Under the pieces are notes generated by a model. That model saw only the letters and a list, made by a program, of their open reading frames with translations, did no database searches and was not told the origin of the DNA. Made by a program: the position numbers and the translations under genes. Positions 22,157 to 62,407 of a DNA stretch of 64,000 nucleotides are shown here, one piece after another. This stretch comes from a candidate division WOR-3 bacterium (GTDB lineage Bacteria; Hydrothermota; Tepidihabitantia; SM23-42). Location of the stretch: contig CP070802.1 in NCBI GenBank assembly GCA_020343595.1, positions 13,377 to 77,376 of the forward strand, read 5' to 3'. Each line of letters starts with the position of its first letter. Position 1 is the first letter of the stretch.

Positions 22157-22184
22157 ATTCTATGTATATTCATAATGAAGTCAA
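22157..22184 (-). promoter_or_regulatory. sigma70-type promoter with SD-led start
   Basis: TTGACT-16nt-TAGAAT; AAGGAGG before ATG at 22139. Confidence 0.65.
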
Positions 22185-22246
22185 GACAGGAGTTGTCTGG
22201 ATTAGATCTTGGGATGCTTTGTAGTGTTCTCGGGCGATATATGAAA

Positions 22247-22274
22247 TTGACAAAGGTGGATTTTTGGGTAGATT
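22247..22274 (+). promoter_or_regulatory. sigma70-type promoter, leaderless
   Basis: TTGACA-16nt-TAGATT, 5 nt to in-frame GTG at 22280. Confidence 0.65.
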
Positions 22275-22279
22275 ATACT

Positions 22280-23341
22280 GTGCTGTTACTGGCATTGTTA
22301 TTTTCTTATTCACTCGATTTTCGTGGCATATGGATACCGCGCTGGTCGATCGACGACCACGAGAATATCTTTGCGACGCTAGACAACAGGTTCAACCATG
22401 TTTTCCTGCAGGTATTTGCACTCGGTGAGGCATACTATCCCTCAGAAAAGGTCATTGTGAAGCGGTATGATGACCGTTGGCTGCGGGATTTTCTGGCTGA
22501 TGCCCACCGCAGAAATATCAGGGTTTCAGCGTGGTTGAACGTGTTTTATTCATGGGGATACGCGGAGCGGACACTGGACGCGCGTCACCCCATAAATCGC
22601 CATCCCAATTGGTATGTCGAGGACCGAAACGGCGGATCAATCCTCGAATATGGTGTCGAGGACTTGAGGCGGATGGGCATCGAAGGCTACTACCTGACGC
22701 CGGCAAACAACCAGGTCTTCGACTACATACTGGATATCGCCACTGAGTTGGTGGAGAAGTATGATTTTGACGGCGTGCATCTTGACTATTGCAGGTATCC
22801 CACGCGTCGGTTCATCTACGATGTATCGCTCAGAAGCAGGTTCATGCGCGAATACGGCGTCGATCCGAGTGATTTCGGATCGACCGGCTTCGAGCAGAGA
22901 TTCAGTGTCTGGGGAAGCACGGATCTCGAGAGTAGATTACAGAATGTGGTGCGTGATGAGTTGACCGTCTTTGTCGGGGAACTGAGCGCCCGGGTGAAAA
23001 GCACCAAACCTTACCTGGAGTTGTCTGTTGCCGTCAAAGCCGACTACGAATCGGCCAGTGCTGATTTCCTTCAGGATTGGCCCCGGTGGGTGAATGATGG
23101 ACTGGTCGATTATGTTTGCCTGATGGCATACGGTAATAACATTGGTGGGATTTTGGACAAGACGATTAAGATAGTGAATGACCCTCAAAAGGTCGCAGTA
23201 GGCCTGGGTGTATACCGTTTGAGTATTGATCGGATTGCGGCTCAGGTTCGGCAGGTTGCCGCTTTGCCCTTTTCGGGTGTGGTATTCTTTTCATATGAAG
23301 AACTCAGGAAGAACCGTTCATATCTGAGCGTTCTTCCTTAG
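22280..23341 (+). CDS. Family 10 glycosyl hydrolase-like (GHL10/YddW-type TIM barrel), secreted
   Basis: RGIW, AHRRNIRVSAW, YDFDGVHLDYCRYP, QDWPRW...VDYVCLMAY. Start reassigned to 22280, which gives a signal peptide. Confidence 0.8.
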   Translation: MLLLALLFSYSLDFRGIWIPRWSIDDHENIFATLDNRFNHVFLQVFALGEAYYPSEKVIVKRYDDRWLRDFLADAHRRNIRVSAWLNVFYSWGYAERTLDARHPINRHPNWYVEDRNGGSILEYGVEDLRRMGIEGYYLTPANNQVFDYILDIATELVEKYDFDGVHLDYCRYPTRRFIYDVSLRSRFMREYGVDPSDFGSTGFEQRFSVWGSTDLESRLQNVVRDELTVFVGELSARVKSTKPYLELSVAVKADYESASADFLQDWPRWVNDGLVDYVCLMAYGNNIGGILDKTIKIVNDPQKVAVGLGVYRLSIDRIAAQVRQVAALPFSGVVFFSYEELRKNRSYLSVLP

Positions 23342-23368
23342 TCAATCAAAGGCGATTCGACAATTTTC

Positions 23369-23396
23369 TTGACAATCGATGTCTTTAGAGTAGAAT
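23369..23396 (+). promoter_or_regulatory. sigma70-type promoter of folK, leaderless
   Basis: TTGACA-16nt-TAGAAT, 7 nt to ATG at 23404. Confidence 0.75.
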
Positions 23397-23403
23397 AGTA
23401 GTA

Positions 23404-23889
23404 ATGAAGAGGATTTTTCTTCTGCTCGGAACAAATCTGGGAGACCTGAAGGAGAATCTCGAGGGCGCCTGTAAAGCCATAGAATCTCATGGTATCAAGA
23501 TTCTGAAGAGATCGAGGATATACAAAACAAAACCGTGGGGTGTATCTGAGCAGCCTGATTTCCTCAATCAGGCCCTGGAAGTGGAAACAGAACTTTCGGC
23601 CGCGGAGTTACTCAAGATATTCAAAAATATCGAAACTCGGATGGGCAGAGGTGAAGGCCGAGGGAGATGGGGGCCAAGATTGATAGACATCGATATCATC
23701 TTCATGGGTAACCTTGTTGTCGACCAAGCAGACCTTAAGATCCCACACCGGCAATTCTTCAAACGCGGTTTCGCAGTGAAGATACTGTCCGAGATCGCAC
23801 CGGATTTCCGCCCCCCGGGTTCATCCAAGGCTTTGCATGAGTATGCAAGAGGAGAAAGTAATGAGGGAATTCAGATTTATTGCGATTGA
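23404..23889 (+). CDS. folK: 2-amino-4-hydroxy-6-hydroxymethyldihydropteridine diphosphokinase
   Basis: LLGTNLGD, QPDFLN, RWGPRLIDIDI, IPH. Confidence 0.95.
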   Translation: MKRIFLLLGTNLGDLKENLEGACKAIESHGIKILKRSRIYKTKPWGVSEQPDFLNQALEVETELSAAELLKIFKNIETRMGRGEGRGRWGPRLIDIDIIFMGNLVVDQADLKIPHRQFFKRGFAVKILSEIAPDFRPPGSSKALHEYARGESNEGIQIYCD

Positions 23890-24493
23890 AGGTGTAATCG
23901 GTGCCGGCAAGACTTCCCTCACTAAGATCCTATCTAACAGGCTGCACGCGGGTGCTCTGCTTGAGGAGTTCGAGGAGAACCCTTTTCTCGCGAAATTCTA
24001 CGCCGACCGGAAGAAATATGCCTTTCACACTCAAATATATTTTCTTATGTCAAGGTACCGAAAACAGCGGGAGATGGCGCAGATCGATCTCTTCAATTCA
24101 AAACTGATCACTGACTACCTCTTCGTTAAGGACCGTATCTTTGCCGAGGTCAATCTGAGTGAAGAAGAGTTTGCACTATATGACAAGATATATTCGATCC
24201 TCTCGATTGACATACCACGACCCGATCTCGTCATCTATCTGCAGGCAAGTCCGGAGGCTCTTTACAAAAGGATCAAGCAGCGTGGCCGTGTGTATGAGCG
24301 TGATATTGAGTTTGAATACATTGAGAAACTGAGTGAAGCGTACAATACTTTTTTCTTTCACTATAATTCTTCGCCGATGTTGATCGTGAACATCAAAGGG
24401 TTTGATTTTCTGGCCAATCCAAGAGATCTTGATTTATTGTGTGACGAAATAAAGGACATCAAGGAACCACGCCGGGTACTGTCAAGAGCATGA
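23861..24493 (+). CDS. Deoxynucleoside kinase
   Basis: IAIEGVIGAGKT, NPFLAKFY, PDLVIYL, RIKQRGR. Confidence 0.93.
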   Translation: MREFRFIAIEGVIGAGKTSLTKILSNRLHAGALLEEFEENPFLAKFYADRKKYAFHTQIYFLMSRYRKQREMAQIDLFNSKLITDYLFVKDRIFAEVNLSEEEFALYDKIYSILSIDIPRPDLVIYLQASPEALYKRIKQRGRVYERDIEFEYIEKLSEAYNTFFFHYNSSPMLIVNIKGFDFLANPRDLDLLCDEIKDIKEPRRVLSRA

Positions 24494-25281
24494 TAACCGT
24501 TAATGCGATCATTGCCAAGAAGAAGGCCGGAGAGAAGATTGTCAGTCTCACGGCCTACGATTTCATAAGCGCACGCATTCTTGATGAAGCTGGTATTGAT
24601 ATAATCCTTGTTGGTGATTCGGCAGCCAACGTTTTCGCTGGCGAGAAGACAACATTGCCCATCACCACGGAAGAGATGCTCTACCACACCAGAGTCGTGG
24701 CGCGGGCGGTGAAAAATGGTCTTGTGATCGCGGACATGCCATTCATGTCCTACCAGGTGTCGGTTGAGTCCGCCGTTTACAATGCTGGACGTTTCCTTCG
24801 AGCAGGCGCATGCGGCGTCAAGTTGGAGGGAGGAGCACCCATGATCCAGACCGTCAAAAGGCTGGTCGACCTTGGCATCCCGGTCATGGGGCATCTCGGC
24901 TTAACCCCTCAGTCGGTACATAAATTCGGCGGCTACCGAATACAGGGCGTCGGCAAAGATGCCTCGGAACGCATGCTTGAGGATGCCAAATCCCTACAGT
25001 CTGCCGGGTGTTTTGCGATCGTCCTTGAAAAGATCCCCAAGGCACTTGCAAAACGGATAACCAGTGCGATCGAGATTCCGACCATCGGCATCGGAGCAGG
25101 CCCCCATTGCGACGGTCAGGTACTCGTACTTCACGATATACTCGGGCTTTTCGAGGAGTTCAAACCCAGATTCGTTAAACGGTATGCCAACCTGGCAGAA
25201 GAGATACGAAGGGCCGTTGAGCAGTACAAGAAAGAAGTGCAAGGAGGCATCTTTCCTGACAAGGAACATTCCTTTGATTGA
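24490..25281 (+). CDS. panB: 3-methyl-2-oxobutanoate hydroxymethyltransferase
   Basis: LTAYD, LVGDS, ADMPF, VKLEGG, GHLGLTPQS, IGAGPHCDGQVLV. Confidence 0.97.
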   Translation: MITVNAIIAKKKAGEKIVSLTAYDFISARILDEAGIDIILVGDSAANVFAGEKTTLPITTEEMLYHTRVVARAVKNGLVIADMPFMSYQVSVESAVYNAGRFLRAGACGVKLEGGAPMIQTVKRLVDLGIPVMGHLGLTPQSVHKFGGYRIQGVGKDASERMLEDAKSLQSAGCFAIVLEKIPKALAKRITSAIEIPTIGIGAGPHCDGQVLVLHDILGLFEEFKPRFVKRYANLAEEIRRAVEQYKKEVQGGIFPDKEHSFD

Positions 25282-25357
25282 CCCGCGGTAAGCCGCCATG
25301 GAGTACCTTCTTGACCGTATCTAATCCATCCAAGTTGCTCGCTGAATATTTCTCTTC

Positions 25358-26671
25358 ATGTTGAGTAATATCATTCTTGTCTACGCATTGCTGGGCACTG
25401 ATTTCCCGATCTGCGTTGCCGATGACTTCCAGCAGTATTCGGAGGTAGAATTCACATACGGACAGTACTATGTTTTCTGGATCGATCGCCGCTACTACTT
25501 CATCAACGAGAAATTCGCCATATTTGGCGCACGTGTCGGTTTGGACGGTCATGTCATCGATCCAAATGGTAAGACGGTATTCTGTGACAGCACTGCTGAT
25601 GGCCTGGATGTCGCCAGCGATCCAAACAATCTCTTCGTTGTCAGTCGGAACCATTGTTGAAGCGACGGGGATATCATCGGAGTGCGGGTCACTCCTTCCT
25701 GTGATACTCTATATTCGGTGACGATATGCAATCGCCCTTCGGTCCAGGCTGACCCGGTGGTCGCCTATACCGGAGAGAATTACGTGGTCGTTTGGTCTGA
25801 TGCCTGGTTCACCGGAGCTTATTACTGGATCATTGCTTCGTGTGTCGATACTGCTGGTACAGTAATGGATACAGGGTATTGTATCGGAGCAGAGGCAATG
25901 TGTAGTGAGTTACGGCCGGATATCGCCTTTGATGGTGAACGATGTCTTGTCATCTGGTTTAATTATGACGAACCGTACGGGGTTTATGGTAGGTTCGTCG
26001 ATGAACTCGGCATGCCCGAGGATACGGTATTCACGATTTCTACAACCCTCGCCAGCTACAATGTTGATCCGAGTGTAGTATTTGCCGGTGATCGTTACCT
26101 TGTCGCCTGGGCCGACGTCCGTTCCGGCAACAGCGACCTCGATATAGTTGCTCAGTTCGTCTCGACCGAGGGTGAGTTGATTGGTGCGCCGGTGGTGATC
26201 GCCACTGGACCCAGCAACCAGATCCAGCCGGCCGCAGGTTACGACGGGAGTGTATTGCTCGTTACCTGGTGTGACGATCCGGTTGCGATATTCGGGCAGG
26301 AACTGCATCCGGATGGCACCTTACTTGGCGGTAATTTCAGAATATCAGACGATATGCCATATTCCAGGAGTCATCCCGCGGTCCATGCATCGGCACAGAA
26401 CTTTCTTGTTGTCTGGAGTGAAACACGCGGCGGTGAGAGCGACATCTTCGGGAATATTGATGTGGCAGCACCGGTGGAAGAGGACGGACCGCATCCAACC
26501 GTTTGGCAGAGAGCGACTATCTTCAATGACCGGCTCGAATTACCATTTGACGGCGCCCACCGCATATATGATGTGGGCGGACGCGACGTTACCGGGCTTC
26601 CCATGTCCAGCGGCATTTACTTTGTTGAATTCGGTGACCGCTGGCTACAGAAGATAATCAAGGTTAGATAG
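25358..26671 (+). CDS. Secreted beta-repeat protein with T9SS-like C-terminal domain, interrupted by one in-frame TGA at 25658-25660 (candidate Sec; alternatively a nonsense allele)
   Basis: ORFs 25358-25660 and 25682-26671 are in one frame (offset 324 nt). Only the TGA separates them, and the intervening codons SDGDIIG complete the repeat unit. Confidence 0.75.
25670..25707 (+). promoter_or_regulatory. Candidate bacterial SECIS-like stem-loop
   Basis: GGAGTG(25679-84)-loop CGGGT-CACTCC(25690-95), with lower stem TATCA/TGATA. The apical loop starts 24 nt after the TGA. Confidence 0.45.
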
Positions 26672-26685
26672 GAATACTCGTTTCA

Positions 26686-27135
26686 TTGAAAAGAACGGAT
26701 CGATTAGATAATATTGTCATCAGAAGGGCACGTATCGGTGATGACGCTGCGCTTGTAAGGCTCTTATCCGAGCTGGGCTACCGTTGCAGCCAGGGTTTTG
26801 CACGCAGCAAGATCAGACAGCTTTCAGGAAAAGCAAGCGACCGTATCTTTGTAGCAGTTGAGAAGCAAGTTGTGACAGCATTCATTTCATGCCATATCCT
26901 GCCAATGGTACACCAACGGGGTTTCTTGTGCCGGGTCACCGCGATTTGCGTCTTGCCAGAATGGCGTGCCCGGGGTATTGGTAAGTTATTAATGGAGACA
27001 GTCGAGGACTTTGCTCGTTCCCGGGATTGTGCTAAAATAGAGATAACGAGCGGAAAGCATAGAAAGATTGCTCACGAATTCTACCGACGTGCCGGATACC
27101 ATACGGCGTCGGCAAGATTCGTCAAAGAATTGTAG
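26686..27135 (+). CDS. GNAT-family N-acetyltransferase
   Basis: VTAICVLPEWRARGIGKLLM, AHEFYRRAGY. Confidence 0.9.
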   Translation: MKRTDRLDNIVIRRARIGDDAALVRLLSELGYRCSQGFARSKIRQLSGKASDRIFVAVEKQVVTAFISCHILPMVHQRGFLCRVTAICVLPEWRARGIGKLLMETVEDFARSRDCAKIEITSGKHRKIAHEFYRRAGYHTASARFVKEL

Positions 27136-27187
27136 AAGACTTCTGTAGGAAAGAAAATCTCACATTGGTGCAAAGTCTGAACCGGCG

Positions 27188-27215
27188 TTGACATTTGCCT
27201 GGAATCTTCTATAAT
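27188..27215 (+). promoter_or_regulatory. sigma70-type promoter of queF, leaderless
   Basis: TTGACA-16nt-TATAAT, 5 nt to GTG at 27221. Confidence 0.8.
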
Positions 27216-27220
27216 TAGGT

Positions 27221-27610
27221 GTGGCGGGTTATACCAAGAAGCATGCACGTGCTGGGCTCAAGGAGAAATTACCCAAACTTGAGGTGATCGATAATCAATT
27301 CAAGGGTTACACAATATCCATTATCATCCCTGAATACAGTTCATTATGCCCTCGCACGGGAATGCCTGATGTTGGGACGGTAACAATTGAATATGAACCC
27401 GGTGCCTATTTCGTAGAATTGAAATCATTGAAGCACTATATTCTGGGATACCGGAACCTCGGTATATTTTATGAGAACGCAGTCAACCGGATCCTTAAGG
27501 ACTTCGTGAAGGCGGTCAGACCGCGTTGGGCCAAGGTTCGCGGTGAATTCCGACCGCGCGGTGGTATCAACACCGTCGTTGAGGCAAAACACGGCAGGAT
27601 ACCATCTTGA
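27221..27610 (+). CDS. queF: NADPH-dependent preQ0 reductase (short type)
   Basis: PEYSSLCPRTGMPD, VELKSLKHY, GEFRPRGGI. Confidence 0.95.
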   Translation: MAGYTKKHARAGLKEKLPKLEVIDNQFKGYTISIIIPEYSSLCPRTGMPDVGTVTIEYEPGAYFVELKSLKHYILGYRNLGIFYENAVNRILKDFVKAVRPRWAKVRGEFRPRGGINTVVEAKHGRIPS

Positions 27611-27623
27611 GAATTCAAACACA

Positions 27624-27651
27624 TTGACAAACCGACAATTCTATATATAAT
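27624..27651 (+). promoter_or_regulatory. sigma70-type promoter, leaderless
   Basis: TTGACA-16nt-TATAAT, 5 nt to ATG at 27657. Confidence 0.8.
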
Positions 27652-27656
27652 GCGCC

Positions 27657-28364
27657 ATGGACCAGGAAACAAAGAGACTCTACATTGAAGCGCTGCAACT
27701 CTATGAAGCCGGCAAAGTAAAAGAGTCTGTCAATGCGTTGAAACAGGTTGTTCAACTCTACCCTGATTATCCTGATGTTCACAATGCTCTCGGTCTCGTT
27801 CATTCCCTCGCTGGTAATCAGGAGGACGCGATCACCTGTTTTAAGAAGGCTATCGAGCTGAATCCCTCCTATATCGAGGCGTACGTGAATCTTGCGATCG
27901 TTTACAATGAGCAGTGCGAATTTGAAGAAGCGATAAGATCTTTTGAGAAGGCGGCAACACTGGAAACGCAGGAGAAAGGTTTCTCGCCGAAACTCAAGGC
28001 GAAACTGGCCGGTGTCTACCGACAGCTCGGCGATACGTACTATGAACTGCAGGAGTACGAGAAAGCAAGAGAGGAGTACGAGAAAGCGATCGGGTTGGCA
28101 CCGACTTTCCTTGATGTCAAGCTGAAACTCGCAAAGGCTTTGCTTCAGCTAAGTGAATTCGGTGGTGCGGAAAAACTTCTCTCCGATATCCTGGCCCAGA
28201 ATGCAAGCTATCTGGAGGCGAAGACCACACGTGGCCTTTGTTACTATCGGCAACAGAGATTCGCTGATGCAAGAAACCAGTGGCAGGAAGTCTTGCGTGA
28301 GGACCCTCAGCACATAAAAGCCAGATCGTATCTAAATATGTTGAAGGAGAAACACGATGATTAA
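27657..28364 (+). CDS. TPR-repeat protein
   Basis: YPDVHNALG, FKKAIELNPSYIEAYVNLA and further TPR repeats. Confidence 0.9.
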   Translation: MDQETKRLYIEALQLYEAGKVKESVNALKQVVQLYPDYPDVHNALGLVHSLAGNQEDAITCFKKAIELNPSYIEAYVNLAIVYNEQCEFEEAIRSFEKAATLETQEKGFSPKLKAKLAGVYRQLGDTYYELQEYEKAREEYEKAIGLAPTFLDVKLKLAKALLQLSEFGGAEKLLSDILAQNASYLEAKTTRGLCYYRQQRFADARNQWQEVLREDPQHIKARSYLNMLKEKHDD

Positions 28365-55590: not shown

Positions 55591-58401
55591 ATGAATAGTT
55601 TAATGATGTTGGGCTTGATCATCTTTTCACAGTACTTCGGTCAAAATAAGATCCAGTATAAAGACTTCGACTTCCGTGTTCTCGAAACCGAGCATTTCAA
55701 TATCTATTTCTATCAGGGATGCGATGAACTGGCGGCTTTCGCCGAGACCGTTCTTGAGGATGGCTACGCAATGCTCAGTGATGATTTGGGCATGGAGATC
55801 GATTTTACCATACCAGCGATAATATACAATTCACCGAACGATTTTTCACAGACGAATATCACGCTCGAACTCATCGAAGAGGCTACCGGTGGATTTTCAG
55901 AGATACTGAAGAACCGGATGGTCGTTCCTTTCACCGGGGACTATGAGGAGTTCCGGCATGTTTTGGTGCATGAGTTGACTCATATCTTCCAATTCGCGAT
56001 ATTCTTTCCGTCGCGGCTCGAAGCGATTTTCAGTGGCGACATACTCTATTCAATACCGCTATGGGTATTCGAAGGTCATTGTGAATTCATGTCGCAGGGT
56101 TGGGATGTTGGCGCGGACATATTCGTTCGAGACCTTGTAATCAACAACAAGCTCATTCCGATCTACGCACTCGGAGGATATGGAGGATTGATCGTCTACA
56201 AGGAGGGTCAGGCATTCTACAAGTACGTGGCCGAGAAATACGGGCGCGAAAAGGTCGGCGAGTTCCTTCATCTGATGAAGATGAAGCGAAATCTGGAACC
56301 GGCGTTCATGGCCGCCTTCGGTGTTACTCCCGAGGAATTTGATAAGCGCTGGCTCAGGTATTACCAGATGCAGTACTGGCCCGAGGTTGACGAAATGGAC
56401 TACTTTGATAACTTCGGCCGGATAATATACGATCACAAGAAAACCAATTCGATCTATAATGTTTCGCCTGCGATATCGCCGAACGGGGATAAGATCGCCT
56501 TCATCAGTGATCAGGGTGGGATTGCGCAGCTCCTCGTTGTTTCGAGCATCGACGGTCGACTCATCGGGAAACTGGTGAAGTCAGCATATTCTGCAGGTTA
56601 TGAGGGACTGCATCTGTATCATGGCGGGTTGTCATGGTCGCGTGACGGCGAATATATTACATTCGCAGCGAAATCCCGCGGTGATGATGTGCTGTACGTT
56701 GTGAGCGCCGCAGACGGTAAGGCATACAGGCGCATGAAGTTCGACCTCACAGGGATCTATTCACCAAGATTCAGCCCCGATGGTAAGCGCATAATATTCA
56801 CCGGCTTGAGGGATTCTTATTCAGATATCTACGTATGCGATATCGAAACGGGCATCCTTGAGAACATCACCAATGACATATATTCGGAGAGTTTTCCAGA
56901 CATACTGTCTGATGATCTGATCACCTTCATCTCCGACCGCCCGGATTCGAATGAAGACTACTACTACGGTCAGCATGGTCTATTTCTTTATGAACACGGA
57001 GAAATAAGCAGGATCTCCCCGCGATCGAAATACCTTGCATCCGCGACATTCGCTCCTGACGGCAGTATCTATTTTGTGGCCGACTACGATTCTGCCTATA
57101 ACCTCTACTATTATTCAAAGGAAGAGGGGAAAGTAAGCAAGAGGACCGACGTATTCAGCGGTATTTACTATCCTTCGATCTCTGCCGATGGCAACAAAAT
57201 GGCATTTTCTTATTATAATGACTACGGCTACGACGTTTGCATTGTCAAGGACGCCTTGACCAAGATGCTTGACTACACGGCGGTCGACAGTGTCAAGATT
57301 GCGCAGATTGATTACTACACCCCGGAACCGCTCGATGACGATGCTATTAAGAAATACAAACCGAGATTCACTTTCGATTATTTCTCGGCAAGCGCAGAAT
57401 ACTTCTCGGTACTTGGCTTTTCGGGCGTGACGCAGATCGGAGTGAGCGATATACTGGGTAACCATCATTTTCAGTTCGCCTCCAATTTCTACGGCAGCAT
57501 TCTGAGTTCGGATATATTCGTTAATTACTGGTATTTGAAGAAGCGGACCGATTTCGGTTTCGGCGTGTTTCAGTACCTGAATTATTTCTCGGATGGGTAT
57601 GATCTGCTGGTGTGGCGCTATCTCGGCCTTGGTGGCGGTATCCAATACCCGTTCGACCGGTTTTTCAGACTGGAATTGGGCATGTATGCCTACAAATTAT
57701 ACGAAACGCGGTGGTTAAACTATTTTCCGTTATACAGTTCAAACTGGTCGCAGACAGCGGATTACAATTTCTTCTATCCCGAGGTAGCGCTTGTGTTCGA
57801 TAACATCAAGTACGGACCGCTGGGGCCGCATGACGGAAGACGTTTCAGGATCGGTGGTTATGCTACAATATTCAGCAACAAGGACCTGAAGAGTGCGGTC
57901 CTTGACTACCGCAGATATTTCGCCCTTTCGCCGCGCGCGAGTTTTGCGTCGCGCCTTGTCCTTGCCGGCAGTTTCGGTGAAGATCTTGATTACTGGTCGA
58001 TCGGCGGGCCGTATTCTCTGCGGGGCTATGACTACTATGCATTCACCGGGAGCAAAATAGGTTTCATGAATCTCGAATTTCGTTTTCCGTTCATCGACCG
58101 TCTCAGTATTGCCTTCCCGATCCCGCTGGAAATTCGGAATATCCGTGCAGATATCTTTGCGGATTTCGGCGCCGTGCACACCGATTCGTTTAAATTCTAT
58201 GAAACCGATGGAGGATTCAGGCTGAAGGACCTTAAGCTTGGTGTTGGAGCGGGGTTGAGATTTACTTTCATGTATATCATATTCAGGTTGGATTTTGCAC
58301 GAGCCCATAACTTAAAGGGTTGGTACGAGTACTACAATTCGCCCACGGATTTCCAGCGTTCGGAGTGGAAGTTCTATTTGACCCTCAGTCCGGACTGGTG
58401 A
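55591..58401 (+). CDS. Outer-membrane protein: gluzincin (peptidase MA-like) domain, TolB/PD40 propeller and Omp85 (BamA/TamA-like) barrel
   Basis: YFGQNKIQY, HELTH...WVFEG..E, SPNGDKIAF/SPDGKRIIF repeats, IGGPYSLRGY, GVGAGLR, terminal aromatic (SPDW). Confidence 0.85.
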   Translation: MNSLMMLGLIIFSQYFGQNKIQYKDFDFRVLETEHFNIYFYQGCDELAAFAETVLEDGYAMLSDDLGMEIDFTIPAIIYNSPNDFSQTNITLELIEEATGGFSEILKNRMVVPFTGDYEEFRHVLVHELTHIFQFAIFFPSRLEAIFSGDILYSIPLWVFEGHCEFMSQGWDVGADIFVRDLVINNKLIPIYALGGYGGLIVYKEGQAFYKYVAEKYGREKVGEFLHLMKMKRNLEPAFMAAFGVTPEEFDKRWLRYYQMQYWPEVDEMDYFDNFGRIIYDHKKTNSIYNVSPAISPNGDKIAFISDQGGIAQLLVVSSIDGRLIGKLVKSAYSAGYEGLHLYHGGLSWSRDGEYITFAAKSRGDDVLYVVSAADGKAYRRMKFDLTGIYSPRFSPDGKRIIFTGLRDSYSDIYVCDIETGILENITNDIYSESFPDILSDDLITFISDRPDSNEDYYYGQHGLFLYEHGEISRISPRSKYLASATFAPDGSIYFVADYDSAYNLYYYSKEEGKVSKRTDVFSGIYYPSISADGNKMAFSYYNDYGYDVCIVKDALTKMLDYTAVDSVKIAQIDYYTPEPLDDDAIKKYKPRFTFDYFSASAEYFSVLGFSGVTQIGVSDILGNHHFQFASNFYGSILSSDIFVNYWYLKKRTDFGFGVFQYLNYFSDGYDLLVWRYLGLGGGIQYPFDRFFRLELGMYAYKLYETRWLNYFPLYSSNWSQTADYNFFYPEVALVFDNIKYGPLGPHDGRRFRIGGYATIFSNKDLKSAVLDYRRYFALSPRASFASRLVLAGSFGEDLDYWSIGGPYSLRGYDYYAFTGSKIGFMNLEFRFPFIDRLSIAFPIPLEIRNIRADIFADFGAVHTDSFKFYETDGGFRLKDLKLGVGAGLRFTFMYIIFRLDFARAHNLKGWYEYYNSPTDFQRSEWKFYLTLSPDW

Positions 58402-59653: not shown

Positions 59654-62407
59654 TTATTCTGTCAACAGGATGACCTTACGGGTCGTTACCTCGTTCCCAT
59701 AACTGGCTCTCACGAAATAGACACCAGAACTGATCCGCCGTTCCATGTTGTCTTTTCCATTCCAGACTATCTCATATTCACCCGCGCTGAAATCCCTGTC
59801 GACAATGTTGCTAACGAGTCTTCCCGCAATATCATAAACACTGATTGATAGTGCGCCACTGTGCGGCACTGAGAAGCTGATCCTCAAGTCCCTTACGAAT
59901 GGATTCGGACTTGGCGCCGGAAGCATGAATCGGTCGACTGACTTGTTGTCCCAGGATTCGATGCCAACCTCGCTCACCGTCATGACTCTCATCATGAAGT
60001 CATAGGTTGTCCAGGCATGCCAGCCCGGGTCACTTGGGTCGGTCCAGTACCAATATGAGAGATAGTCCAATGGTTGTGTGTTGTCCATGCCGATATAAGG
60101 TGCAGTCGGTGAGCCGGACAGCCAATGTACTACCATCCAGAATGGGTCTCCGGTCGTCACCTGTATCGGTGGTGTATATTCCTTGATCGCCCAACCGGGA
60201 CCCGCGCCGTTGATCGTGTCCGGAGCGGCAATGTAATATGATGGATCGAGCCCGGGTAAACTAGTAGAGTCTTTATGAAGTGAAACGGCTATCATCGAAT
60301 CATTACTGCAGTAGAACCGTACCTGCGTGATGTAGTATGGTGGCGAGAGGCAGGGCATCATTTTTTCCGCAAACTTGTTATCGGCGAAGGTTGTGGAAAC
60401 GTATCCGTAGGTATCAAGGAATCCATCATCATACATGATTTCTGTCGTAACATCGAAAGCAGTCGCCATGGTATCGTTTGACGGCACATAATCATCCGGT
60501 ACATCGGTGAAGAAATATGCGTCGTATAACCCGGTATCACTAGGACTCCAGCTAGGTGCGACAGTCACGACCTGTGATTCAAATGGATTAAGATAAGACT
60601 GGCCATTGCCGCTGTAGACAAGCGTACCAATGTCGTCGTATATCTCACAATTGACCGGGATTTGCTCGGTATAGCTGCCGTGGTTTGCCACGGTCACCCG
60701 GGGTGCACCCGTGTAATTCAGAGTGATTTCTGAAAATGGATATGAAATGCTCAACACGGTGCCGTCATGGTAGCAGATACTGGTCTGCGTCAACGTATCA
60801 TTCTGCGGGAATTCGTCACCCGACAGCGTAGTGAAAGCAGTAGTCAGGTACCGACCGTATGCGGGTACGTTCCAGTTTGGTGTGAAGCTGACCGTTGTGC
60901 TTGAACCGGATGCGAGCCCGCTGATTGCGGCGGTGTCGCCGTAGAGGGGCTGCGCAAGTGAGTCGTGGATGTAGCACACGACGCTGAAGCTGGCTGGTTG
61001 CGCGCCGTAGTTACGGGCGATCGCCTGAGGCGTAATATTCTGTCCAACCTGGAGGAACGCGGCTGGTGCGTTGATCCTTTCGATCCCGACATCATTGGTC
61101 AGTGGGTCGAGCATGCGTATGGCGTAGACCTCACCGCCGCTTCCGAATTGGCGGGCGTGAACGGCTTTGCCGCCGGCCGTTATGAACGAACCGTCTTTGG
61201 ATATATCCACGGAAAAGATCGATCCCGGTTCATCGATATCATCCAGCAACTGGAAGATCGGCGTAGATGAGTTGCGGTCGAACACGGTCAGCACGTCACC
61301 AAAGGTAGCGTTGTATTGACCCCAGGAACCGGCAACGGCACGTGCACCATCCTCGCTCAGTGCGCAGGTGGGTACGTAATCACCGTACTGTGTATACTCC
61401 CAGAGGGGTGTTGCTGATGAGGAATCGAAGAGCAATACTTTACCAGTATTGCTCGGGCTGTACTGGAAGGTGCCGGCCATGATCGTCGAACCATCGTCTG
61501 ATATCGCCACCGATGTGACCCACGGATGTCCGGTCGGATGCTGCCATACCTGGTCATAGTCTGAGCCGTTCCATCGGTAAAGGTATACGCGGGTGTAGAA
61601 GTCCCCCTTGACGAGGTACTTGCCATCGGCTGAGATCTTTGCCGGCGTCTGGCCGTATTGCATGATCGAATCACGGCGCGAACCATCGGCGTTGAATACG
61701 TATATCGCGTCATACGTGGAAACACAGATCACCGAAGCATCATTGGCCATGTCGACGCCGTAGATACCGCGGGTCGGATTGAAACCGACCGTTCTGATCG
61801 TATCCCCGGCGGCATCGAAGAGAAAGAGGCGGCCCTGACCGGCCTGACCGGCGAGCGCGGCATAGACCGATCCGTCATCGGCAACGCTAATTGTAGGCCC
61901 CTGGGCACTCGATGAGAAGTTGAAACCCGTTGGAGGACTGTATACCCAGTTAGGCGCGGCACTCGCGGAAGAGAAACTATAGCATGCTTCACCGTCTGCG
62001 AGGACACCGATCCCGGCACCGTACATCGAAACATCGGTTGATATGAACCAGTCGGCTCCGGACATGGGGAATGTCCACATCGGTGTGTTCGTTCCGAGAG
62101 TCCGGTACAGACTCGTTCTTTCGTTGTTCAGGTACCATCCTGCCTGTATCCACATGCCATTTCCGGCGATCGCCGTGTGCTGGGCGATGGCATTCTGGTG
62201 ATTGCGATCAACCCATATTACCTCGGCGCGGTGGTTTCCACAGAAATCAGTTGCGGTCTTCAGCCCAGGGGTGTCGCCGGATGGCTCGGTGACGAATCTG
62301 GTTCCGTCCGCACTCGTTTCAATTTCTATTCCTGGTACATCGGCCGGCTTTGTGATCCCGGCGGCCAGGATATTTACTGCCATCAACAAACAGAGTAAGT
62401 ATTTCAT
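59654..62407 (-). CDS. Large secreted protein: WD40-like propeller, CARDB/Ig-like repeats and FlgD/T9SS-type C-terminal domain
   Basis: Signal peptide; repeats ISADG/SVAISDDG; NDVGIERINAP, DEFPQNDT, DYVPSNDT; SPNPF...IYDIAGRLV...WNGKD...SGVYFVR. Confidence 0.85.
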   Translation of the reverse strand: MKYLLCLLMAVNILAAGITKPADVPGIEIETSADGTRFVTEPSGDTPGLKTATDFCGNHRAEVIWVDRNHQNAIAQHTAIAGNGMWIQAGWYLNNERTSLYRTLGTNTPMWTFPMSGADWFISTDVSMYGAGIGVLADGEACYSFSSASAAPNWVYSPPTGFNFSSSAQGPTISVADDGSVYAALAGQAGQGRLFLFDAAGDTIRTVGFNPTRGIYGVDMANDASVICVSTYDAIYVFNADGSRRDSIMQYGQTPAKISADGKYLVKGDFYTRVYLYRWNGSDYDQVWQHPTGHPWVTSVAISDDGSTIMAGTFQYSPSNTGKVLLFDSSSATPLWEYTQYGDYVPTCALSEDGARAVAGSWGQYNATFGDVLTVFDRNSSTPIFQLLDDIDEPGSIFSVDISKDGSFITAGGKAVHARQFGSGGEVYAIRMLDPLTNDVGIERINAPAAFLQVGQNITPQAIARNYGAQPASFSVVCYIHDSLAQPLYGDTAAISGLASGSSTTVSFTPNWNVPAYGRYLTTAFTTLSGDEFPQNDTLTQTSICYHDGTVLSISYPFSEITLNYTGAPRVTVANHGSYTEQIPVNCEIYDDIGTLVYSGNGQSYLNPFESQVVTVAPSWSPSDTGLYDAYFFTDVPDDYVPSNDTMATAFDVTTEIMYDDGFLDTYGYVSTTFADNKFAEKMMPCLSPPYYITQVRFYCSNDSMIAVSLHKDSTSLPGLDPSYYIAAPDTINGAGPGWAIKEYTPPIQVTTGDPFWMVVHWLSGSPTAPYIGMDNTQPLDYLSYWYWTDPSDPGWHAWTTYDFMMRVMTVSEVGIESWDNKSVDRFMLPAPSPNPFVRDLRISFSVPHSGALSISVYDIAGRLVSNIVDRDFSAGEYEIVWNGKDNMERRISSGVYFVRASYGNEVTTRKVILLTE

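Follow-up and report, generated by a model that had tools for sequence, protein, structure and literature searches.

The stretch of DNA considered here, hereafter the window, comprises 64,000 nucleotides (nt) of contig CP070802.1 from a candidate division WOR-3 bacterium (assembly GCA_020343595.1), and the element in question is a gene on its forward strand that is interrupted by one in-frame TGA. Two open reading frames (ORFs), 25358-25660 (100 amino acids, aa) and 25682-26671 (329 aa), lie in the same frame with the TGA at 25658-25660 as the only break, and the codon directly 5' of this TGA is TGT (Cys, 25655-25657). Translated across the TGA the product is 437 aa long, and the residues that follow the break, SDGDIIGVRV, carry on the protein's own repeat. 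A first-pass annotation, made from the sequence alone, had described the two ORFs as one frame split by a single TGA; the string that it quoted and its translation VSRNHC*SDGDIIGVRV are exact, the repeat does continue past the stop on inspection as it had claimed, and the length of 437 aa that it gave is that of the read-through translation. As developed below, the UGA at 25658-25660 very probably encodes selenocysteine (Sec), and the two frames would form one gene for a 437-residue exported protein.

Elsewhere in these genomes TGA is an ordinary stop, as had been noted for the window in the first pass. The upstream panB gene closes with TGA (25279-25281), and TGA is the most frequent stop among the ORFs of at least 200 aa in the window, closing 25 of 49. 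The real terminators of 14 orthologous genes are TAG in seven, TAA in three and TGA in four, and since the terminal stops of these same genes include TGA, the codon still means stop in these organisms. A genome-wide reassignment of TGA was considered and is ruled out on both counts (25/49 long window ORFs, 4/14 orthologous genes).

A search with the fused 437-aa query against 5.8 billion protein clusters returned 55 proteins, including 26 clear orthologues at 34-74% identity (hereafter, with the window gene, family 1). All 26 are annotated as the part after the TGA (C-part) only, 303-333 aa long and starting at (M/V)RVTP or a few codons earlier, and the gene callers used on the relatives yield two pieces everywhere, of 100 aa and 309-333 aa. 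Public databases hold the family-1 orthologues (P0002-P0029) as separate proteins of ~100 aa and ~310-330 aa, for example 'hypothetical protein KAS45_01750'. Sixteen distinct loci, nine from GTDB genomes and seven from assemblies, were chosen by protein similarity of the C-part, blind to both stop and hairpin; the named genomes among the nine GTDB loci are all candidate division WOR-3, and four complete chromosomes that carry the gene are included (CP070686.1, CP070705.1, CP070795.1 and CP070834.1). In every one of these 16 loci, at 34-74% identity, an N-terminal part (N-part) that has a short hydrophobic leader lies upstream, and Cys-TGA occupies the identical column, after which come six codons and then GGAGTGCG[G/T]GTCAC[T/C]CC. 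One complete chromosome, CP070686.1, holds two diverged paralogues (L001 and L009, at 69% and 34% identity to the window protein), and because both have the Cys-TGA and the hairpin, the Sec site would be older than the duplication.

Metagenomes were scanned with the context C-x-x-x-[GA]-[DN]-x-x-G-V-R-V-T, leaving wobble positions free and tolerating TGN at the critical codon. Among the 120 matches listed, 116 are family members, each with TGA (116/116), and the other four, which have TGC, TGT or TGG, lack the family context and are unrelated. Neither TAA nor TAG was found at the internal stop column in the 16 protein-similarity loci or the 116 metagenome loci listed, and the internal stop is, judging from these alignments, selected to be TGA specifically. 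Retention of the TGA in orthologues, a check proposed in the first pass, is thus seen in all of these loci.

When a gene is intact but for one in-frame stop, as here at 25658, a pseudogene or an assembly or sequencing error is what one would usually suspect. The probability of either is negligible: the TGA stands at one column in more than 130 independent assemblies, which come from different samples and sequencing centres, by which the sequencing error that the first-pass annotation had entertained is excluded, and full-length proteins from 14 orthologues align across it, with purifying selection on both sides.

The hairpin downstream of the UGA

The stem of the hairpin begins 18 nt past the TGA and the loop 24 nt past it. 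The 6-bp stem GGAGTG/CACTCC and loop CGGGT were found at 25679-25695 just as the first-pass annotation had described them. The lower stem TATCA/TGATA on which it had placed this helix does form in the fold of the window sequence but is absent from the RNAalifold consensus of 122 relatives; since RNAalifold recovers the 6-bp helix and nothing else, the lower stem is specific to the window sequence, and it was rejected as a conserved feature.

Constraint at synonymous sites was measured in a codon alignment of 14 full-length genes, in which 50 columns have a conserved four-fold-degenerate codon. The third-position entropy of the five such codons within the hairpin is 0-0.99 bits (mean 0.39), against 1.04-1.96 bits (mean 1.67) for the other 45, and the two ranges do not overlap (Mann-Whitney p = 1.5e-4). 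Across 122 distinct sequences, 98.9% of stem cells are paired, compared with 44-62% when the partner is slid. The variation at pairs made of wobble positions only preserves pairing in kind: alignment columns 39-51 are AU in 96 sequences, GU in nine, CG in seven, GC in five and UA in two, and columns 42-48 are GC in 114, AU in four, and CG, GU and UG in one each. Cells changed on both sides number 20, where 1.6 are expected, a count reached in 0 of 500 shuffles. Conservation or covariation of the hairpin had been put forward as a check in the first pass, and both the frozen synonymous sites and the compensatory cells bear it out. On this comparative evidence the hairpin is a functional, selected RNA element.

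The form of the element is that of a bacterial Sec insertion sequence (bSECIS). The published bSECIS model calls for a loop of 3-9 nt, an upper stem of at least 4 bp, a G in the first two loop positions, 16-37 nt from UGA to loop and an energy of -7.5 kcal/mol or lower (PMC13188914). All family sequences have a 5-nt loop, a 6-bp stem, G at loop position 2 and 24-nt spacing, a distance within the range of the model (PMC13188914), and the apical loop in relatives reads [C/A]G[G/U]GU, in which position 2 is invariably G and position 3 is G or U, again as in the model. A search of the window and the hairpin region against Rfam gave chance-level matches only.

The same segment bears on the possibility that the TGA is a true stop. 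The locus would then hold two translationally coupled genes, for a secreted N-piece of 100 aa and for a C-piece of 329 aa started at GTG 25682, whose products would make up a split propeller, with the hairpin regulating re-initiation. All gene callers annotate two genes in this way, and a GTG is conserved 21 nt past the stop with GGAG before it. That GGAG abuts the GTG without spacing, however, and so is unusable as a Shine-Dalgarno sequence, and the GTG owes its fixation to its place in the hairpin stem. The internal stop, unlike the real terminators of these genes, is TGA throughout, with no TAA or TAG, and the 18-nt spacer between stop and stem, without any indel, evolves like codons of the repeat motif x-x-G-D/N-I-x: its variation is codon-like (GGN, GAY/AAY, ATH/GTN) and keeps the residues x-x-[GA]-[DN]-[IVL]-x. 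The C-piece, moreover, would lack a signal peptide and start in the middle of a blade. Separate genes are for these reasons very unlikely.

Selenocysteine and the weight of the evidence

Under the Sec reading, the UGA would be decoded as Sec instead of stop during translation, and the decoding would be directed by the intragenic hairpin GGAGUG-CGGGU-CACUCC. A SelB-type elongation factor with Sec-tRNA(Sec) would attach to the apical loop and bring Sec to the ribosome. The product is predicted to be a beta-propeller of seven blades that has a short hydrophobic leader in front and, at its C-terminus, a small beta domain of the type used for sorting in type IX secretion (T9SS). The invariant Cys-Sec dipeptide would be placed in blade 2, in the loop that joins strands B and C, at a position where the other blades and the non-seleno relatives have a conserved R-S-G loop. 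On one face of the propeller the dyad would most likely form a selenenylsulfide with redox activity or else a site that binds soft metals. We infer Sec as the inserted residue, the export of the protein and a chemical role for the dyad; the last is drawn from chemistry and from other selenoproteins with an adjacent Cys-Sec ('CU') motif, and any specific biochemical role is proposed with low confidence.

Several observations weigh against this reading and are gathered here. The genes selA, selB and selD and tRNA-Sec were not found in the 64-kb window, and ARAGORN and motif scans of 0.92 Mb (the window plus related loci) gave no tRNA-Sec and no SelA, SelB or SelD motifs; this is a small, clustered, non-random sample in which negatives are uninformative, and the window holds no tRNA at all. 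The 23 window ORFs of at least 300 aa and seven shorter ones around the gene are housekeeping or envelope genes and not selA, selB or selD, and no Sec-machinery genes occur in gene flanks of up to 10 kb (P0008, P0011) or in the gene table of an 11.7-kb contig (P0017). A literature search linking WOR-3 with selenocysteine found nothing. In most known bacterial selenoprotein families a Cys-containing orthologue is usual. None appears here among the 55 proteins of the protein search or the 120 listed pattern matches, nor does a Trp variant, and the first-pass expectation of Cys (TGY) at this column in some orthologues was not borne out. When the N-part (100 aa) was used in a HMMER search for full-length Cys orthologues, the best 150 matches were large generic repeat proteins, of which three were inspected, and the result is uninformative; distant repeat relatives have Ser or Gly at the Sec-equivalent position.

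Taken singly, the hairpin of the window also tells against the reading. Its 55-nt single-sequence fold (-14.5 kcal/mol, z = -0.2) is no better than shuffles, and the 17-nt core, at -6.9 kcal/mol (z = -2.4), is slightly weaker than the -7.5 kcal/mol threshold of the model. The core energy spans -5.8 to -9.6 kcal/mol across variants and is -8.19 in the RNAalifold consensus. As a single sequence the window hairpin is statistically unremarkable, and its significance rests on the comparison with relatives. As for the protein, the N-terminus is uncharged and lacks a basic n-region, and the T9SS assignment of the tail, which scores below the curated cut-off of 23 bits, is not firm. There is, finally, no universal partner gene; neighbours differ by subclade, and function is unsupported by context.

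The UGA could instead be read through without selenium, with the hairpin stimulating near-cognate or suppressor decoding that would insert Trp, Cys, Arg or Gly. The failure to find Sec machinery in the window or the 0.92 Mb scanned fits this possibility, as does the lack of a Cys orthologue among the 55 proteins and the listed pattern matches, and the hairpin evidence demonstrates a functional RNA element, not the identity of the factor bound to it. If any standard amino acid served, however, sense codons would be expected somewhere in more than 130 sequences of 34-100% identity, and none is seen; the geometry and loop sequence of the hairpin agree with the bSECIS consensus, and the adjacent Cys is invariant, as in known CU-motif selenoproteins. 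To our knowledge, hairpin-driven site-specific UGA read-through is not established as a bacterial mechanism, which also counts against it. We allow read-through of this kind a small probability and retain Sec as the preferred reading of the UGA.

The predicted protein and its genomic neighbourhood

The features of the gene and of two companion families discussed further on are collected in the table.

Table. Coordinates of the gene, its features and the in-frame TGA codons of companion families (window positions unless a locus is named)
Feature	Position	Strand	Details and basis
Complete gene, probable selenoprotein	25358..26671	+	437 codons; ATG 25358, TGA as probable Sec codon 101, TAG 26669-26671; end-to-end orthologue alignment
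Hydrophobic N-terminus MLSNIILVYALLGT, putatively signal-peptide-like, then DFP[IV][CS] motif	25358..25399	+	Conserved in 14 orthologues
Predicted seven-bladed beta-propeller, degenerate 'YLVVW-x-D-x-R-x-G-x-x-D-I-Y-G-x-R-V' repeats	25400..26461	+	C-part AlphaFold model, Foldseek, repeat register
Cys codon TGT before the putative Sec codon	25655..25657	+	TGY in 122/122 distinct sequences and 16/16 protein-similarity loci
In-frame TGA, putative Sec	25658..25660	+	TGA in 16/16 protein-derived loci and 116/116 TGN-scan members listed
Six-codon spacer SDGDII, from TGA to hairpin	25661..25678	+	Invariably six codons; codon-like variation
bSECIS-type hairpin	25679..25695	+	Stem GGAGTG 25679-25684 / CACTCC 25690-25695, loop CGGGU 25685-25689
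Low-confidence linker (VAAPVEEDGPHPTVWQR region)	26462..26515	+	pLDDT <50 for C-part model residues 261-278; variable in alignments
C-terminal beta domain of ~50 aa, T9SS type A sorting-like	26516..26668	+	TIGR04183, sub-threshold
Family 2, BNR/Sortilin-Vps10-type propeller of ~750-770 aa, directly upstream of family-1 gene	L067 TGA 8541, 10856; L113 TGA 1419, 3755	+
Family 3, FG-GAP repeat protein of ~410 aa, adjoins family-1 gene	L126 TGA 5201; L033 TGA 1779	+

From an alignment of 26 sequences, AlphaFold models the C-part as all-beta (predicted local distance difference test, pLDDT, 82.8; predicted template modelling score, pTM, 0.75), with four 4-stranded blades and one 3-stranded blade, a linker that is disordered and, at the C-terminus, a small beta domain. 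In Foldseek the model matches best the propellers of GH43, TolB and neuraminidase (E 2e-7 to 5e-5, template modelling score 0.34-0.51), and the C-part is, as modelled, a beta-propeller fold. The number of seven blades is counted from the repeats in the full sequence, and the ring would be closed by an N-terminal strand. The TGA interrupts blade 2 after its strand B (LFVVSR) and ahead of its strand C (DIIGVRV), with blade 1 and strands A-B of blade 2 encoded 5' of it and the remainder 3'. For want of their partner strands, the first residues of the C-part model show disorder. From model and repeats together, neither half is a complete fold.

The tail is less clear. TIGR04183 is the only or the top family match in all four isolated tails searched, each time below the cut-off of 23 bits (window 12.3, L014 17.6, L012 18.9, generic relative P0026 20.3), and in BLASTP the tail of the window protein weakly resembles the FlgD_ig/Por_Secre_tail end of P0039. 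The T9SS-like tail that the first-pass annotation had placed on the C-part is to that extent qualified. A hydrophobic leader and a T9SS-sorting-type tail together point to a periplasmic or cell-surface location, and since the tail matches TIGR04183 only below the cut-off, export is plausible but not established. No Pfam family was found in the fused protein, in 26 orthologues or in the isolated tails; NCBIfam release 20 gave chance-level matches only on the fused protein, apart from the sub-threshold TIGR04183 on tails, and a sequence search of the PDB with the family profile found nothing.

In the window and its close relatives the gene order is folK-dNK-panB-[gene]-GNAT-queF. More fully, the order in the window (22175-28364), L020 and L021 is a GHL10 glycosidase-like gene, folK (HPPK), a deoxynucleoside kinase gene, panB and the selenoprotein candidate, with a GNAT acetyltransferase gene (sometimes absent), queF and genes for a TPR protein, a DksA/TraR zinc finger protein and LspA downstream. 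This conserved panB-queF neighbourhood is a housekeeping context and no pointer to function. In a subclade with the sequence ...QDSC-U-[SN]MADIFGVRV (U = Sec) the gene stands immediately downstream of hypF and hypC, which serve hydrogenase maturation (L014 172-2997, L015, L016 and 10 loci); in L014 the start of the gene and the stop of hypC overlap, with a cobW/HypB-like gene upstream. The hypF-hypC arrangement suggests co-transcription and is a possible hint of a nickel- or metal-related role. A third subclade has a gene for a PQQ-like propeller upstream.

An antisense ORF of 159 aa (25175-25654, minus strand), which overlaps the N-part and the end of panB, is in all likelihood a shadow of the coding strand; in GC-richer relatives, ORFs of this antisense kind were clustered as spurious 'neighbours'. 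Two other window genes encode large, probably exported proteins, one of 917 aa (59654-62407, minus strand) that carries an FlgD Ig-like domain at its C-terminus, a kind of tail seen on T9SS-style cargo in these organisms, and one of 936 aa (55591-58401, plus strand) with PD40 beta-propeller repeats. Neither of these two has an in-frame TGA.

Candidate companion families and known selenoproteins

The same 0.92 Mb were scanned for an in-frame TGA with a hairpin of the same loop type 16-37 nt downstream, which gave 112 family-1 sites and four others; a relaxed scan, with G anywhere in the first two loop positions, gave two extra sites in the same two families as these four. All six non-family-1 sites belong to two unrelated gene families, both candidate selenoprotein families, that adjoin the family-1 gene in some contigs, and the chance expectation for hairpins with the four loops concerned is 0.08, compared with four observed. 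The companion hairpins are 7 bp long, with loops CGGGU, CGGGA, CGUGU and AGUCU that have G at position 2 and then G or U, and three of the six loops are identical to the CGGGU or CGUGU of family 1.

In family 2 the TGA, written U, stands in the context ...LEG-x-G-U-G-x-A-x-L-[FY]-KSTDGG, and in L067 and L113 a hairpin C[A/G]GACGG-CGGG[U/A]-CCGUCUG lies 32 nt past it. The T9SS type A tail of this family scores 27.8 bits, above the cut-off of 23. About 25 database orthologues, among the best 120 of 8000 scored candidates, end exactly at ...LEG-x-G, and family-2 orthologues (P0206-P0248) are deposited as fragments of 415-427 aa named 'photosystem II stability/assembly factor-like'. At the TGA position, homologues of full length carry Cys (P0218), Pro, Leu or Gly, and the putative Sec forms retain a C-G-x-[IV]-C motif ~25 residues upstream. 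The TGA of family 3 lies in the context ...Y-G-U-C-Q-G-A-T-V-A-V-C-D-W-N-E-D, its hairpin 20 nt past the TGA is CAGUUGC-CGUGU-GCGACUG or CGGUCGC-AGUCU-GCGACUG, with differences that preserve pairing, and its T9SS type A tail scores 25.0 bits, likewise above the cut-off. That three unrelated genes share this kind of element argues for a working Sec-insertion system in these bacteria. We give about an even chance to the broader proposition that at least three unrelated families of T9SS-tailed beta-propeller selenoproteins (with Cys-Sec, BNR/sortilin G-U-G and FG-GAP G-U-C, respectively), side by side in some genomes and with similar SECIS loops, form a set specific to the WOR-3 lineage.

Parallels with established systems are instructive. 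Like bacterial genes with an intragenic SECIS, such as fdhF of E. coli, the window gene has an in-frame UGA and, within the coding sequence, a stem-loop with a small apical loop; unlike known bSECIS genes, its protein is unrelated to the listed families and its conserved element is a 6-bp minihelix without a lower stem. Mammalian thioredoxin reductase, the kind of enzyme to which the first-pass annotation had pointed, carries a C-terminal vicinal Cys-Sec pair (Gly-Cys-Sec-Gly) able to form a selenenylsulfide. That motif is at the flexible C-terminus of a flavoenzyme, whereas the Cys-Sec of the window protein would be internal, at residues 100-101 of 437, in the motif R-N-H-C-U-S-D-G, and the protein has no oxidoreductase, flavin or NADPH domain, so that it does not qualify as a Cys-Sec centre of the thioredoxin reductase type. 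Adjacent Cys-Sec is shared with the catalogued 'CU' motif selenoproteins, which comprise the SaoL/MerB-like lyase, HgcA, SaoC, MbdU, KCU-star and the Csac_0668 2Fe-2S family and whose names in the table associate them with metal or organometal chemistry (Table 1 of PMC13188914). The window protein differs from these in having no NCBIfam match to them and in placing its dyad in a loop of a predicted exported beta-propeller.

The repeat unit itself, together with a similar tail, is shared with generic repeat propellers of the type 'AFDGTNYLVVW-D-R-SG-DIYGARV' (P0026, P0030, P0039; weak DUF3659; hhalign probability against P0039 99.6%). These have R-S-G where family 1 has C-U, regular repeats and no in-frame TGA, and they are usually much longer. 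Cargo of the T9SS type A class (TIGR04183 / PF18962) resembles the window protein in its hydrophobic leader, beta-rich passenger and C-terminal beta domain of ~50-70 aa ending in residues like K-[IV]-[IV]-K-[VI]-R, and differs in that the tail of the window protein scores below the curated cut-off and that none of the 26 orthologues has a Pfam match. Sec proteins outside the cytoplasm are already known, for the catalogue lists envelope or extracellular families such as the TonB-dependent receptor of FCYXU type, the GSU2204 MtrB/PioB-like barrel, the ExtKL cytochrome and DUF1573 (PMC13188914). These have other folds and motifs, and none is a beta-propeller or T9SS-tailed. Family 1 matches none of the 119 catalogued prokaryotic selenoprotein families (May 2026; PMC13188914), and a literature search found nothing linking selenoproteins with beta-propellers or the T9SS. 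Judged against this catalogue, Pfam and NCBIfam release 20, it is almost certainly a previously uncatalogued selenoprotein family. As a bacterial Sec-UGA/bSECIS gene it is mechanistically ordinary; what is unusual is the propeller fold with its probable export, the lack of any Cys orthologue found, a phylum not previously linked to Sec and the probable companion families.

One practical consequence is that all public copies examined are mis-annotated as two 'hypothetical proteins', and the neighbouring BNR family is affected in the same way. The compact covarying SECIS, of 6 bp with a CG[G/U]GU loop, can serve as a lineage-specific search key and has already yielded two more candidates. If the Sec reading is true, the family would bring a fold (beta-propeller) and a location (exported, probably surface-displayed) that are new to the 119-family catalogue, and it would extend the use of selenocysteine to WOR-3, a phylum that is almost entirely uncultured. 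Selenium is apparently indispensable in this protein, as no Cys orthologue occurs among more than 130 sequences, which makes it a good system for the question of Sec versus Cys. Should the set of three families also prove real, it would be the first evidence of the 21st amino acid in WOR-3, would place Sec outside the classical cytoplasmic setting of thiol oxidoreductases, and would mean that these bacteria deliberately place selenium at the cell surface or in the periplasm for chemistry beyond that of sulfur.

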